Shown one piece after another: positions 2,562 to 32,002 of a stretch of 64,000 nt of DNA. Origin of the DNA: a virus; IMG/VR virus record IMGVR_UViG_3300028610_002211, positions 32,001 through 96,000 of that record, one strand, 5' to 3'. The notes under the pieces were generated by a model that worked only from the letters and a program-made list of their open reading frames with translations, did no database searches and had not been told where the DNA came from. How positions within the stretch are numbered: position 1 is the stretch's first letter; each line of letters opens with the position of its first letter. Made by a program: the position numbers and the translations under genes.

Positions 2562-2596
2562 TTGACAACTGAATTAGAATGATTAAGCTTATAGTA
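2562..2596 (+). promoter_or_regulatory. sigma70 cassette promoter
   Basis: TTGACA-16-TAAGCT; predicted +1 = A of ATG 2596. Confidence 0.75.
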
Positions 2597-3450
2597 TGAG
2601 CAGCGCAACACACAAAGGAGAAAACAAAATGAACGCCAAAGACAGAAATTTCGCAGAAATCACGGACAAAATCATTGCCAAACTCGAAGAAGGTACGGTG
2701 CCTTGGCATTGCCCTTGGGGAATGGCCGTTAACTTGAAATCGGGTAAGTCATATACAGGGATCAATAGCTTGGTGCTCGGTATGGCCGGTCATGAGTCCA
2801 AATTCTGGGGGACTTACAACCAAATCAAAGCGTTAGGCGGATACGTCAAAAAGGGCTCGAAGGCCCAAACAATCATTTATTGGGGTTGGGTCGAAAAAGA
2901 AGAAATTGACGAAGAGACCGGCGAAAAAGAAGTGGTTCGCCGCTTCCCAATTCTCAAAACGTTCAAGGTTTTCAACTTCGAGCAAACCGCTAATTTGACT
3001 GAGCCCAAAGTTGACACTGAAATAGTTAATGTTGATTCGATTGTAGACGGTTATGAACACTGCCCGGTCATCAATTACGGTGGTGAAAAAGCTTATTACA
3101 GACCGTCTACCGATTCGATCGGCATGCCACCGCGCGGCAATTTCGATAGTGACGCGGAACACGCTTCGACGTTGTTTCACGAGATGGTACACAGCACCGG
3201 TCACGAAAGCCGCTTGAATCGTGACGGGCTCAAAAACATCAACTTTGGCTCACAGAATTACAGCCAAGAAGAATTGGTAGCCGAACTGGGCGCAGCGTTT
3301 CTTTGTAACCAGGTTGGGATCGTTGAGCGTACGATCGACAATAGCGCAAACTACATTGCCGGTTGGCTGAGAACCCTGAAAAATGACAAAAAGATGATTG
3401 TTTTCGCCGCTGCACAAGCCCAAAAAGCCGCCGATCAGATTCTTGGTTAA
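2596..3450 (+). CDS. ardC: ArdC-like ssDNA-binding/zincin antirestriction protein (second start 2629)
   Basis: VPW..PW, YTGIN, WGTYNQ, VKKGSK, FKVFN, AYYRP..D.I.MP, HEMVHSTG, YSQEELVAELGAAFL. Confidence 0.9.
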   Translation: MSSATHKGENKMNAKDRNFAEITDKIIAKLEEGTVPWHCPWGMAVNLKSGKSYTGINSLVLGMAGHESKFWGTYNQIKALGGYVKKGSKAQTIIYWGWVEKEEIDEETGEKEVVRRFPILKTFKVFNFEQTANLTEPKVDTEIVNVDSIVDGYEHCPVINYGGEKAYYRPSTDSIGMPPRGNFDSDAEHASTLFHEMVHSTGHESRLNRDGLKNINFGSQNYSQEELVAELGAAFLCNQVGIVERTIDNSANYIAGWLRTLKNDKKMIVFAAAQAQKAADQILG

Positions 3451-7892: not shown

Positions 7893-8143
7893 AAATGTCA
7901 TTCATAATACAAGAAAATAGGGTTTGGGAAGTAACGGACCAAGACGGTAGAAAATACATATTGAAGAAGGCGCCTGATGGGTTGTTTATAGTCGGTCAAA
8001 TGTTGGAATACGAAACAGACGAGCTCGTTGCCCAAGTCGTAAAAACTCGAAAAGCGCCGATTTGGATAAAGACACCAACAGAAGCGGTTTGCTGGTATCA
8101 AACCAAGGTTGAGGGAACACCCAAAGGAGAAAAAACAAAATGA
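7886..8143 (+). CDS. hypothetical protein (paralog of 4475)
   Basis: IKTPTEAVCWY. Confidence 0.65.
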   Translation: MVKMSFIIQENRVWEVTDQDGRKYILKKAPDGLFIVGQMLEYETDELVAQVVKTRKAPIWIKTPTEAVCWYQTKVEGTPKGEKTK

Positions 8144-8796
8144 CGAATTTCGAAGAATTGTATCAAGAAATGATGGCTTTCGAAACAGAAGAAGAATGTC
8201 GCAAATTCTTATCGACTTGGGAAAAAGACCAATTGGTAGAATTTGCTAAACACCTTCAAGTTTATTACTATAGTTCTAAAAAAGGCTTGATTTTTGACAT
8301 TGTGGGCGCAACCAAAGGCGCCGAAATCAGATCGAGGATTATCAGCGATGAAGACACCATAAAACCACTAAAATTAAAAGAAGAAAGCTACATCACACTG
8401 AGGGAAGGCGCAAGGGCGTTCTATCAATTGATTGAGGATACCGTGCCAAGCTCCCCAGAACGGACTGAGGCGCTTAAAAAGGTTGAAGAGGCGTTGATGT
8501 GGGCAAATACGGCTTTGTCGCGTTATATGGCCTTACAGTCGAGCCCGGGACGGTCTATGAAAAGAAATGAAGAGCTGTTTTTAGACTATAGAGGGGAAAC
8601 CGGGCTCGATTGGCGCAATTTCACATTGAATCCCCTGGCCAAAACGCAACCAAAACAAGTTTGTCTAGGTTGTAAAAAACACCCTTGCGAATGTAAATTT
8701 TCAAATCGCATATGGGATGAAAAACATTGCACGTGTGGATCGTTGCGTATCGGGATTAATGCTGAATGTCCAAACGAAGATTGTGATCAAAGATGA
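8140..8796 (+). CDS. multidomain protein with central Acb2/Tad1-like helical hairpin and Cys-rich tail
   Basis: Y..LRE.A..F..LI...P.S.ER..AL.KVEEALMWAN; SD AAGGAG. Confidence 0.65.
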   Translation: MTNFEELYQEMMAFETEEECRKFLSTWEKDQLVEFAKHLQVYYYSSKKGLIFDIVGATKGAEIRSRIISDEDTIKPLKLKEESYITLREGARAFYQLIEDTVPSSPERTEALKKVEEALMWANTALSRYMALQSSPGRSMKRNEELFLDYRGETGLDWRNFTLNPLAKTQPKQVCLGCKKHPCECKFSNRIWDEKHCTCGSLRIGINAECPNEDCDQR

Positions 8797-10322: not shown

Positions 10323-10778
10323 ATGAAGGACTTGAGCGAAACAGATTTGAAAGAAAAACTGTTGGTTGGAACAAAGGCATATGTGTTGATAGAAAGTATA
10401 GACCCGTACGACATAGAAGCGGGCAAACTTGTCCAGTTGGACAAACTGACGGTTATGGGAGTGATTGTTTGCGACCGTTTAGAAGAGGAAACAAGGAGTC
10501 TTGTGACGGATCGGGTGTTTACCACTTACAAAATAGCTCCAACTAGCTTAGAAGAAGCAAACAAACTTCCCAAACCAAACCCAAACGAAAAGGATTGGGA
10601 CAAGCCGCTTGAATATGACGGTCCGATCGCTTGCACCGAACGGCAACTGTTAGAGATAATCGAAGATGAGTTTGTTGCGTTTGAAGCGTTTTATGCCGGT
10701 CTGGTTAACATGACCAGGGCTTATATAGCGCACAAAAAACACGCTTTAACTGAACAAGAGCTTTTTAACACTCTTTAA
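10323..10778 (+). CDS. hypothetical protein (paralog of 7479)
   Basis: SD AAGGA; WDKPLEYDGP. Confidence 0.7.
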   Translation: MKDLSETDLKEKLLVGTKAYVLIESIDPYDIEAGKLVQLDKLTVMGVIVCDRLEEETRSLVTDRVFTTYKIAPTSLEEANKLPKPNPNEKDWDKPLEYDGPIACTERQLLEIIEDEFVAFEAFYAGLVNMTRAYIAHKKHALTEQELFNTL

Positions 10779-10798
10779 CGCAAGAAAAGGAGAAAAAA

Positions 10799-25015: not shown

Positions 25016-25033
25016 ACAATTTCGAAAAGCAAA

Positions 25034-25066
25034 CAAAGGGTGCGGGAAACCGCGCTCTTTGTCTTT
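25034..25066 (+). terminator. GNRA-capped hairpin, possibly a bidirectional terminator
   Basis: CAAAGGGTGCGG-GAAA-CCGCGCTCTTTG. Confidence 0.6.
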
Positions 25067-25211
25067 GCAGAATGTCCAGGGCGCCCTTGTGCGCGCGCCC
25101 GCGCGCGGGCGCATACTCGGGCAAGGGTTAAACACAACGGCCGTTAGAACGGCGCACAAAGGTTCTGAGAAGGAAGTGAGATAAACAGATCCTAAAGGAT
25201 AATATCTAAAT

Positions 25212-25228
25212 TGCAATCTGCGTGCCAA
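25212..25228 (-). promoter_or_regulatory. sigma54 (-24/-12) site A
   Basis: minus strand TTGGCACGCAGATTGCA. Confidence 0.7.
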
Positions 25229-25268
25229 AGGAAAAATAATTTTTTTTAAAATAAAAGTGAGAATTTTC

Positions 25269-25303
25269 TTGACATCTGAATTAGCTGTGTTAAGTTTATA
25301 ATA
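25269..25303 (+). promoter_or_regulatory. sigma70 cassette promoter
   Basis: TTGACA-16-TAAGTT; +1 = A of ATG 25303. Confidence 0.75.
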
Positions 25304-25476
25304 TGAGCGCAACAATAAGGAGCAAGACAATGAACGTTAAAATGAAAAAAGGAGAAACAGGTTATTTCAAGGGTGACAAAATACAATTCACCGGAAAAGA
25401 AGAAGTTCTTTACGGTGGGCTTTTCGATGAGTTTGTTTATCTCGAAGGTTATAAAAAAGCAGCTAAAAAAGCATAA
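25303..25476 (+). CDS. 57-aa cassette protein (second start 25330; not in ORF track)
   Basis: leader MSATIRSKT-M; TAAGGAG SD; TAATG coupling to next gene. Confidence 0.65.
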   Translation: MSATIRSKTMNVKMKKGETGYFKGDKIQFTGKEEVLYGGLFDEFVYLEGYKKAAKKA

Positions 25477-25817
25477 TGCACAAAGGAGCAAGTAAAATGA
25501 ACACCACTAACAATAATAAAAATACTGTCGAAGAAAAAAGAACAACAATCGAGGTTTTCGACCCTAAAAAATTCGATCACAACCAAAGGTGGTTTCAACC
25601 GATCAACAATTTTGCTTTTCTTGGACAAGCTTCCGGTATGGCGCTCGCTCACGATCCGATTTATAGGGATAGTCTATGGGCCGAAACAGTACCGCACCCT
25701 AATTTTTTGCGCGATGTCGAGAGAAAATTTCCCGGTCATGTGTTGGTTTATGATGATATGGGTCATGGACGCGATTGGATTCTCTCGATCAAAGGTTCTA
25801 TTCCTTCGAACGAATAG
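25476..25817 (+). CDS. hypothetical protein (second start 25497)
   Basis: partial leader MHKGASK-M. Confidence 0.7.
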   Translation: MHKGASKMNTTNNNKNTVEEKRTTIEVFDPKKFDHNQRWFQPINNFAFLGQASGMALAHDPIYRDSLWAETVPHPNFLRDVERKFPGHVLVYDDMGHGRDWILSIKGSIPSNE

Positions 25818-25818
25818 C

Positions 25819-25924
25819 GTTCAACGCCCTTGTGCGCGCCCCTGTGGTAACTTTTGTTTGTCTCCTGTGTTGCGCTAACCATGGGGATTTGAGTCGAACA
25901 GGAGCGCGCACAAGGGTGTTGAAC
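25819..25924. repeat. 27-bp inverted repeat with 52-nt loop (candidate ncRNA)
   Basis: arms 25819-25845 / 25898-25924, 25/27 complementary. Confidence 0.85.
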
Positions 25925-25985
25925 CCGTTCAACAGCTTCAATGAACCTGCCAAAATAAACAGATCCTAAAGGATAATATCTAAAT

Positions 25986-26002
25986 TGCAATTCACGTGCC
26001 AA
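25986..26002 (-). promoter_or_regulatory. sigma54 (-24/-12) site B
   Basis: minus strand TTGGCACGTGAATTGCA. Confidence 0.7.
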
Positions 26003-26043
26003 GAAAAAAACCACTTCTGTTTAATTTAAATGTCGTTTTTCGG

Positions 26044-26079
26044 TTGACATCTAAATTAGAATGATTAAGCTTTATAGTA
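26044..26079 (+). promoter_or_regulatory. sigma70 cassette promoter
   Basis: TTGACA-16-TAAGCT; ATG 26079 lies 8 nt after the -10. Confidence 0.75.
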
Positions 26080-26300
26080 TGAGCGCAACACAAAACACGG
26101 GAGAAAACAAAATGACAAAAATCGAAATGGCTCAGTATATTGTTGAGGTCTTGTATCAGTTGGACCACGTACCTGCCCGAGATCACATCCATGTCCAGCG
26201 AATAGCTCGCAGGCCGAAGGTTGCCTTGGAGAATTTGTACGAAAGAGCTTTCGTGGTCGAAGAAGAGCTGAAGGCGAAAAAAACCATAGCTAGCCTGTAA
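26079..26300 (+). CDS. cassette protein (second start 26112)
   Basis: leader MSATQNTGENK-M. Confidence 0.7.
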   Translation: MSATQNTGENKMTKIEMAQYIVEVLYQLDHVPARDHIHVQRIARRPKVALENLYERAFVVEEELKAKKTIASL

Positions 26301-26347
26301 ACCAAAACTGCAAACGGGGGGGGTAACACTCCCCGAAAGGGTGTCCG

Positions 26348-26698
26348 ATGAACGACAAAATAAAAAAAATACTGTTCGAATTGTCGGCCGATTTCACTTT
26401 GGCTGGTATCCAACAAGGGCGCAAATCGTTACACGAGGATAAAGCGCTTTGCCTCAAGGTTTCGAAATTACGAAACGCGATCGATCTTTTGTCACTCCAA
26501 AGAGCGCAACTTGCGCGTTGTTGGGAAGGTGTTTCGATTACTTCTATCGTTGAAACGGTCAAAGAATGTTTGGGCGCAGCGCTTGAATTGGGATCTTTTT
26601 TGGGTAATAACTACCCCGCCGAGTATATCGAAATCGAGTTGCATGGTACAAAATACGTCGAAAAATGTTGGGCCTTGATTGGCGTTTTGTCCGTTTAA
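26348..26698 (+). CDS. hypothetical protein
   Basis: SD AGGGTG. Confidence 0.65.
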   Translation: MNDKIKKILFELSADFTLAGIQQGRKSLHEDKALCLKVSKLRNAIDLLSLQRAQLARCWEGVSITSIVETVKECLGAALELGSFLGNNYPAEYIEIELHGTKYVEKCWALIGVLSV

Positions 26699-26720
26699 AA
26701 TCGTATTTCATCCCGGTTTA

Positions 26721-26749
26721 AAGGTGTTTCGAAAGGGGCGCCTTTTTTT
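26721..26749 (+). terminator. intrinsic terminator
   Basis: AAGGTGTTTC-GAAA-GGGGCGCCTT plus T run. Confidence 0.75.
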
Positions 26750-26781
26750 ATTTCTGTGTAATTCACAAGTCAGGATAATCT

Positions 26782-26798
26782 TTGGCACGTAAATTGCT
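26782..26798 (+). promoter_or_regulatory. sigma54 (-24/-12) site C
   Basis: TTGGCACGTAAATTGCT. Confidence 0.7.
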
Positions 26799-26923
26799 AC
26801 GCGTGTTGTAAATATTATCCTTTAGAATCTGTCCATCCGTTTCGGCGTCCGAATTAACCGCTTATTTTTGTTGGCGTTAGGCTTTGTGTTTGAAAACGAG
26901 TTCAAGGGCCTTGTGCGCCTTCT

Positions 26924-26990
26924 CAAGGCGTTTTAACGGGTCAACCTATACCAGGGGTTGAGTTAAAAAAACGGTCGTTAAAACGCCTTG
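26924..26990. repeat. 15-bp perfect inverted repeat with nested hairpin
   Basis: CAAGGCGTTTTAACG / CGTTAAAACGCCTTG; inner TCAACC/GGTTGA. Confidence 0.85.
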
Positions 26991-27028
26991 TGGATATCTT
27001 GTGTTTAATTCACATGTTGATAAATAGT

Positions 27029-27045
27029 TTGGAATGAATATTGCA
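27029..27045 (+). promoter_or_regulatory. sigma54-like site D
   Basis: TTGGAATGAATATTGCA (GG-N10-GC) followed by the shared TTTAGAATCTGT box. Confidence 0.5.
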
Positions 27046-27142
27046 ACGCGCGCTTGTTTACATTTAGAATCTGTACATCCGCTTCAACCTTCGATATAAA
27101 TTGCGTTTTGACTTTTTAGTTAAAGAGTGTTAAAACCTGTTC

Positions 27143-27643
27143 ATGAAAATTCTAAGACGAAAAAACATAAAAAGCTTTCCGGGTTATCAAATTTCAAACT
27201 TTGGAACAGTTAGGAGAGAAGTTTATAAATTGTACGGGATTAAGGAAACGAGGATATTTCCTCATATCAATAATGGTTATCAAATTGCCAATTTAAAAAG
27301 CGAATCTGGGGAGCAAAAGAAAGTGCCTATTCACAAACTTGTTGCAAAAGCTTTCGTTTCCGGCTGGTTTGAGGGCGCAATTGTTGATCATATCGACGAG
27401 AATAAGCAGAATAATTTTTTCAAAAATCTTCGCTGGGTAACTCATCGCTTTAATTCCTCTCGACGTAAGCGCGATCTGCCTTTGAATGTTTCAAAATTTC
27501 GAAATCGAAATAGTTATATTGTTCGAGTTTATTTCGGTGGTGAAATCGTTTATTTGGGCTCATATAAGACGGTTGAAGAAGCTTCGAGGGTTGCTGAAAG
27601 GGCGCGCAAGCAAGCGGAAAAAGGGGAAAAACCAACTCGTTAA
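27143..27643 (+). CDS. NUMOD4-HNH-AP2 homing endonuclease
   Basis: YQISNFG.VR, IHKLVAKAF, VDHIDENKQNN..NLRW, YLGSYKT.EEA. Confidence 0.9.
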   Translation: MKILRRKNIKSFPGYQISNFGTVRREVYKLYGIKETRIFPHINNGYQIANLKSESGEQKKVPIHKLVAKAFVSGWFEGAIVDHIDENKQNNFFKNLRWVTHRFNSSRRKRDLPLNVSKFRNRNSYIVRVYFGGEIVYLGSYKTVEEASRVAERARKQAEKGEKPTR

Positions 27644-31986: not shown

Positions 31987-32002
31987 AAAAATTTTATAAC
32001 TT

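Follow-up and report, generated by a model that had tools for sequence, protein, structure and literature searches.

The DNA analysed here, referred to as the window, is a stretch of 64,000 nt corresponding to positions 32001–96000 of the IMG/VR record IMGVR_UViG_3300028610_002211, and it carries a cluster of four short sites that resemble promoters of the sigma-54 (RpoN, -24/-12) class. The record, 104,305 bp long and rated complete, belongs to an uncultured phage with a GC content of 41%, and all of its credible genes lie on the plus strand. The structural genes (terminase, portal, capsid, sheath and tape-measure) are those of a contractile-tailed phage, and the replication module comprises a DnaE-type polymerase, a DnaB-like helicase, a loader and a primase. 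Between these modules lie about 30 kb of small early 'cassettes', each preceded by a conserved promoter; this block also carries ArdC-like, Acb2/Tad1-like, ThyX and thymidylate kinase genes. No close cultured relative of the phage was found, and most of the early proteins have no family match. The four sites, here called A to D, are all intergenic and fall within 1.9 kb in three gaps (25016–25329, 25818–26111 and 26699–27142).

The sites lie where the original prediction placed them. A and B are on the minus strand and point backwards from two cassette boundaries (cores 25228–25212, TTGGCACG-CAGA-TTGCA, and 26002–25986, TTGGCACG-TGAA-TTGCA); C and D run forward in tandem on the coding strand (26782–26798, TTGGCACG-TAAA-TTGCT, and 27029–27045, TTGGAATG-AATA-TTGCA). 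Scored against the extended consensus TGGCACG-N4-TTGCW, A, B and C match at 12/12 positions (exact motif at 25227–25212, 26001–25986 and 26783–26798), and the weaker D, TGGAATG-N4-TTGCA at 27030–27045, matches at 10/12 with its GG and GC retained. The four-site motif is a solid observation. In the proposed scan of the whole genome for the RpoN motif, A, B and C were the sole perfect matches, against 0.013 expected (12-position motif, composition-based). For the shorter TGGCAC-N5-TTGC, 0.11 sites are expected per genome, and three or more occurred in none of 300 Markov-1 genomes.

Each core is followed by a second conserved element. A shared TTTAG(G/A)ATCTGT box had been claimed after every site, and TTTAGRATCTGT indeed occurs exactly at all four and nowhere else in the genome: as TTTAGGATCTGT on the minus strand at 25196–25185 (A) and 25970–25959 (B), and as TTTAGAATCTGT on the plus strand at 26821–26832 (C) and 27063–27074 (D). 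With up to one mismatch allowed, as many matches were reached in 0 of 100 shuffled sequences. The box lies 16 nt after the TTGC in A and 23 nt after it in C, and a transcript from a sigma-54 start would carry it at about +5 to +12. At C it continues into CCATCCGTTTCGGCGTCCGA, an extension common to D and to a related contig, L031, described below; these three prolong the box with CCGYTTC...TYCGA and A and B do not. When B and C are aligned in promoter sense, they have just two blocks in common, the 17-nt core and ATATTATCCTTTAGRATCTGT (the 20-nt box region), and their flanks are otherwise unrelated. Searched for alone in IMG/VR, the box gave 27 matches, all by chance and within unrelated genes.

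The cores can be compared with the phage's own early promoters, 17 of which have the common box TTGAC(A/T)TCTGAATTA(A/G). Two of these boxes, TTGACATCTGAATTA at 25269–25283 and TTGACATCTAAATTA at 26044–26058 (both plus strand), stand divergently beside A and B, with 40 nt and 41 nt respectively between the core and the TTGACA, in line with the 41–42 bp of the original prediction. The sigma-54-type core is identical to the cassette box at 11/16 positions and differs from the 17 boxes at positions 4, 7, 8, 15 and 16, always toward the sigma-54 consensus. GG(-24), CG and GC(-12) arise from precisely these five differences, which as substitutions would turn the cassette TTGACATCTGAATTAG into TTGGCACGTGAATTGC. 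The TGAA that is conserved in the cassette boxes is free to vary in the core. Moreover, C retains an upstream element (26751–26770, plus strand) homologous to the element found before the cassette promoters, and D has a paralogue of it (26998–27017, plus strand), both at the identical 10-nt distance. Given the partial identity, the directed differences and the retained upstream element, the sites look like early cassette promoters that were apparently converted to the sigma-54 class.

The cassette promoters are unusual in themselves. The original prediction had labelled those next to A and B as sigma-70 promoters, a label that fits them poorly: TTGACA and TATAAT stand 22 nt apart (22–23 nt over 25269–25310, 26044–26086 and the 15 others), which is non-canonical, and a TAARYT hexamer (TAAGTT-type) lies 16 nt after TTGACA, with the intervening TCTGAATTA kept in the 17 copies. 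Such a layout implies either two overlapping -10 elements or an extra factor.

A fifth copy of the module comes from L031, a 2-kb metagenome contig and the sole recovered relative that holds the region. Its copy of the adjacent 428-aa (amino acid) gene is 74% identical in protein, and downstream of this gene, on the minus strand, stands TTGGCAC-ATGAA-TTGCA followed after 16 nt by TTTAGGATCTGT; a TTGACATATGAATTA early promoter, divergent from this core, lies 41 nt upstream of it. In L031, TTGGCAC, TTGCA and the box are thus all preserved, as is the distance of 41 nt, and the spacer of 4–5 nt varies; the contig scores 11/12 against the extended consensus. From the box to the early promoter the contig is 79–86% identical to A and B, compared with 54% at third codon positions of the adjacent gene, and from the box to the terminator the identity is only 63%. 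Since the CCGYTTC...TYCGA extension is limited to C, D and L031, the contig is a mosaic with a B-like promoter, a C/D-like leader and an A-like body. The GG-N10-GC spacing, which the original prediction expected to be conserved in related phages, is exact in L031, the one relative that has the region, and hence in 5/5 copies. Across these five, GG and GC are invariant, and variation affects 4/4 spacer positions versus 3/12 consensus positions (Fisher p 0.02). To judge from these alignments, a fixed GG/GC with a varying spacer is the pattern that a -24/-12 promoter would predict.

Beyond L031 the searches returned little. With neighbouring proteins as queries, no related loci were found in viral, genome or metagenome contigs, save for the protein query P0001, from which alone L031 came. 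IMG/VR motif scans for core-plus-box, core-plus-downstream and core-plus-cassette-box gave no match, and neither core nor box is present in G001–G004, relatives found by their capsid protein. G004, whose genome of 113.8 kb is complete, is a distant relative with a capsid 70% identical, and the notion of a phage family of such sites finds no support in it, for it lacks the motif and the whole 30-kb cassette region. Its replication and structural modules are syntenic with those of the phage at 30–70% protein identity, and the part without a counterpart corresponds to genome positions 31,000–62,000 (window -1000 to 30000). Among 185,579 genomes, core-plus-box was found in two Deltaproteobacteria metagenome-assembled genome contigs (one locus) and at one Pseudoalteromonas site, about the number expected by chance, and these matches therefore give no clue to the host. 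At the deltaproteobacterial locus (L046:6702–6742 and L047:3730–3770), TTGGCACGGCCATTGCC is followed after 13 nt by TTTAGGATCTGTGCA upstream of a DRTGG-like gene; this 15-nt TTTAGGATCTGTGCA is identical to L031 in both contigs. It is plausible that this locus is a host sigma-54 promoter before the DRTGG-like gene.

What the sites point into differs between the pairs. The original prediction had all four pointing into non-coding hairpins; this stands for A and B, but D and probably C are aimed at a gene and not at such hairpins alone. D, with C upstream in tandem, heads a free-standing HNH homing-endonuclease gene (27143–27643, plus strand, HNH_3 and NUMOD4 domains) that starts 68 nt after the D box and has a poor ribosome site. 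The connection between this gene and sites C and D is a new one. The nearest cultured homologue is the SPO1 intron endonuclease gp31.2 (36% identical), for which reason we considered a group I intron around the gene. We rejected it: no Rfam intron match appeared at E up to 10, and no gene is interrupted, since the gene before has a stop and a terminator and the gene after has its own promoter. The 17 nt at 27119–27135, shortly before the HNH start codon, are perfectly complementary to the plus strand at 10763–10779, at the stop codon of the gene 10323–10778 (blastn E 4e-4); the match is AT-rich and may be due to chance.

A and B point into 130–170 nt of non-coding DNA. The sequence of CC(C/T) type claimed after A, B and C is present at all three as CYTTGTGCGC in promoter sense. 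Of the stem-loops claimed there, that of B is very strong (27-bp arms, z -6.7), and those of A (z -2.4) and C (z -2.6) are modest. The stretch that a putative A transcript would cover (25030–25184, minus strand) is GC-rich with a CUUUGUGCGC...GCGCACAAGGG stem and 63% identical to L031. It ends at the hairpin that terminates the upstream plus-strand gene and is weaker on the minus strand; such a terminator end, again weaker on that strand, exists only at A and L031. The B hairpin spans 25819–25924; read on the minus strand, the loop is a start-less copy of the cassette leader, and on the plus strand it is antisense to that leader. The structured stretch after C (26895–26990, plus strand) has a perfect 15-bp stem (26924–26938/26976–26990) and also contains AACGAGTTCAAGGGCCTTGTGCGC, which in sense orientation shares 83% identity with B. 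These structured stretches look like patchworks of fragments of 5' untranslated regions (5'UTRs).

The proposal that the sites drive small RNAs fared less well than the promoters. Conservation covers the promoter and the box and leaves out the downstream hairpins: L031, whose downstream stretch does not fold (z +0.39), has lost the fold of A, its RNA body reaches 63% identity where third codon positions reach 54%, and the downstream stretches have no Rfam match. We therefore regard the small-RNA half of the first interpretation as weak. The original prediction had also seen no Shine-Dalgarno-led open reading frame behind A, B and C. This does not hold for B, where an AGGA-led frame of 51 codons with a TTG start lies at 25953–25798 (minus strand); the frame is without a Pfam match, nothing corresponding to it exists at the other sites, and we rejected minus-strand protein genes.

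On the plus strand, the B hairpin loop shows strong complementarity to the leader that seven early cassettes have in common (z -7.4, mean duplex -35.7 kcal/mol), and it may be an anti-leader borne on a 3' untranslated region or the fossil of an inverted cassette. Small RNAs driven by sigma-54 against the leaders were rejected: none of the sense RNAs from A, C, D and L031 shows complementarity to the leaders (z above -1.5), and at B the sense RNA reaches z -3.6, the strong match being on the plus strand instead. A 40-nt direct repeat (35/40, 87%) joins window positions 25125–25165 to genome positions 8750–8789 (L044), the 5'UTR directly before the start codon of the dnaB-like helicase gene. Because A holds a plus-strand copy of this 5'UTR, a minus-strand RNA from A would be antisense to the ribosome-binding region of the helicase gene over nt 29–68 of the putative transcript (35/40). 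Within the repeat, a C-to-T change leaves a small hairpin paired on the plus strand only. These antisense matches are leads, short of evidence for small RNA genes.

Other candidates were considered for the same DNA. A frame from the TAG in the box to a conserved TGTGCGCC(G/A)TTCT(A/G)A is present at 25196–25146 (minus), at about 1301–1240 (minus) in L031 and at genome positions 8795–8765 (minus). It encodes Cys-Ala-Pro-Phe-stop; copies differ by a synonymous CCG/CCA change and in the stop codon, TAA or TGA. Its candidate starts, 7 nt after AGRA, are only ATC, ATT and AAC. We rejected a short peptide encoded from the box to TGTGCGCCNTTCTRA in A, L031 and the third copy, since an ATC/ATT start 7 nt after AGRA is no canonical start codon and the divergence is too small. 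The ends of the B hairpin, GTTCAAC (25819–25825) and GTTGAAC (25918–25924), fit the RYYYAAC ... GTTRRRY of an integron attC site, a candidate rejected as the hairpins of A and C do not fit it and the genome has no tyrosine recombinase or integrase. Likewise, GC skew is uniform and a replication origin was rejected.

Taken together, we give about even credence to the reading that the four sites are host-RpoN promoters of the -24/-12 class, gated by a host activator. As judged from the motif, the sigma-54 class is the most economical reading, being the only one that fits all five copies, as the original prediction had recognised for the sites in the window. That the phage has no sigma-70-family factor of its own also speaks for it. 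Several observations weigh against it. The phage genome has no match to Sigma54_activat (PF00158) or to Sigma54_DBD, the mark of a sigma-54 gene, and the four upstream regions share no 9-mer with up to one mismatch and hence no common activator site. A capsid-based search for the host, in which rpoN is presumed, recovered no close prophage relatives in 400 + 400 sampled genomes of two phyla, and a protein atlas returned viral clusters only. The copies are paralogues and thus not independent, the complete relative G004 has neither core nor box, and the downstream RNA structures are not conserved. The distance from TTGC to box is variable and unexplained (16, 16, 16, 18 and 23 nt across copies). 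Finally, A, B and L031 can be read as sigma-70 promoters with -35/-10 hexamers 16–18 bp apart (TTGGCA-N16/18-TAnnnT), as can D (TTGCAA-N18-TAGAAT).

These last readings belong to an alternative that we consider unlikely, in which the sites would be weak promoters for sigma-70, namely degenerate copies of the cassette promoter in inverted or tandem arrangement, and their likeness to sigma-54 promoters a by-product of TTGGCA resembling TTGACA. A scan of A and B gives TTGGCA-N18-TATTAT (10/12) and TTGGCA-N16-GATATT, and in L031 this stretch has undergone five substitutions and yet retains the hexamer TACTAT at 16 nt. The identity of the core to the cassette box and the cassette-type element kept by C and D would also follow from such an origin. 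Yet no one sigma-70 reading suits all five copies. C in particular has a perfect sigma-54 core and, because of an 8-nt insertion, no -10 hexamer at 15–19 nt. Moreover, the five differing positions are fixed toward the sigma-54 consensus and the cassette-conserved TGAA varies.

Distinctly unlikely, in our view, is that core and box together form the bipartite site of an unrecognised phage factor, be it a middle or late specificity factor or a repressor, with no role for host RpoN. The box is conserved as well as the core and has no place in a sigma-54 model, the many early proteins without a family match could hide a regulator, and the cassette boxes also hold the unexplained conserved TCTGAATTA. 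However, all 12 sigma-54 consensus positions would then be recognised only by coincidence, and a core-box distance of 16–23 nt is awkward for a single protein. About 50 early proteins were scanned and show no sigma-like or other known transcription-factor domain; the phage genome has no match to Sigma70_r2/r4, and so no sigma-70-family factor of its own, nor to an integrase. A scan of about 50 larger proteins against Pfam or PHROGs gave no RNA polymerase match.

Least probable of the three is that RpoN merely docks, its closed complexes serving as boundary elements, roadblocks or dampers of early promoters and any RNA being irrelevant. In its favour, sigma-54 is stable when bound inactive (PMC4591121), neither an activator gene nor a common activator site turned up, A and B occupy cassette boundaries with a constant 40–41 nt to an early promoter (kept in L031), and the RNA bodies are poorly conserved. 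Against it, the core is followed downstream by a conserved box with a 20-nt extension, at a position where one would expect a transcript or a second factor, D and C are correctly placed and oriented for expression of the HNH gene, and the footprint would end short of the core elements of the early promoter.

Under the preferred reading of the sites as host-RpoN promoters, sigma-54 RNA polymerase of the host would read four sites built on the phage's own early cassette promoter. C and D would drive the HNH gene, A and B would drive antisense-oriented non-coding transcripts, and every transcript would open with the same leader TTTAGRATCTGT, 5–12 nt after the predicted start. Sigma-54 polymerase binds its promoters and stays closed until an ATPase activator remodels the complex. 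Since the phage has no activator gene, the units should be off by default and dependent on a host activator; they would fire only when that activator is active, and it could possibly be one that needs no upstream binding site. Until then, the bound enzyme would sit beside the early promoters. A fuller scenario, which we put forward as possible though doubtful, is that a virulent phage re-tooled copies of its early promoter so that a host enhancer-binding ATPase, and through it a stress or nutrient signal of the host, times the homing endonuclease as well as transcripts that run antisense from cassette boundaries. One of these would be directed against the ribosome-binding region of the helicase gene, and no part of the RpoN system would be encoded by the phage.

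Elsewhere in the genome, the late region has no recognisable shared promoter motif. The cassette genes at window positions 2596–3450 and 8140–8796 encode an ArdC-like anti-restriction/metallopeptidase protein and an Acb2/Tad1 hairpin domain protein, the latter a candidate sponge for defence signals.

Phage transcription is thought to use host sigma-70, phage sigma factors or phage polymerases, and we found essentially no description in the literature of host sigma-54 used for phage genes. If the proposal is true, a phage holds units that are off by default and need an ATP-driven host activator, and the expression of a mobile nuclease and of antisense RNA is tied to the physiological state of the host. 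The case also shows a route to a sigma-54-type promoter, through five point changes in an existing sigma-70-type box. Among classical enhancer-dependent sigma-54 promoters are glnAp2, pspA and nifH, with the consensus TGGCACG-N4-TTGCW and activator sites usually about 80–150 bp upstream. Like these, the phage sites have GG and GC exactly 10 bp apart, carry the full consensus in three cases, are intergenic and each face a discrete unit. Unlike these, they belong to a lytic-type phage without an activator gene, share no upstream activator site, are antisense to all genes in two of four cases, and have a conserved box just past the predicted start. The homing-endonuclease gene of T4 I-TevI is expressed from a late promoter. 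As in such phage genes, a small nuclease gene with a poor ribosome site stands here between transcription units, with a dedicated promoter of another class than its neighbours; here, however, the class would be sigma-54, and the module also occurs twice without a nuclease gene.

In E. coli, sigma-54 holoenzyme is bound but inactive at promoters, among them antisense and intragenic ones (PMC4591121). The phage sites are comparable to these, which are not obviously tied to a downstream gene and are antisense in some cases; the E. coli sites are chromosomal and mostly inside genes (PMC4591121), whereas those of the phage are intergenic, clustered and paralogous. A further parallel is with glmY/glmZ, where sigma-54 promoters drive small RNAs; upstream of these lie IHF sites and three GlrR sites, and the structure of the RNA is conserved (PMC3045617). 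The phage differs from that system in that a search for activator sites found none and its RNA bodies lack conservation. Nonetheless, as in the Enterobacteriaceae, promoters of the sigma-54 type stand ahead of short non-coding RNAs, here putative (PMC3045617). Furthermore, the glmY/glmZ promoters interconvert with sigma-70 promoters, and this exchange of class, with overlapping sigma-70 promoters in some species, parallels both the apparent conversion of the cassette promoter and the overlapping readings of A, B and D as sigma-70 promoters (PMC3045617).

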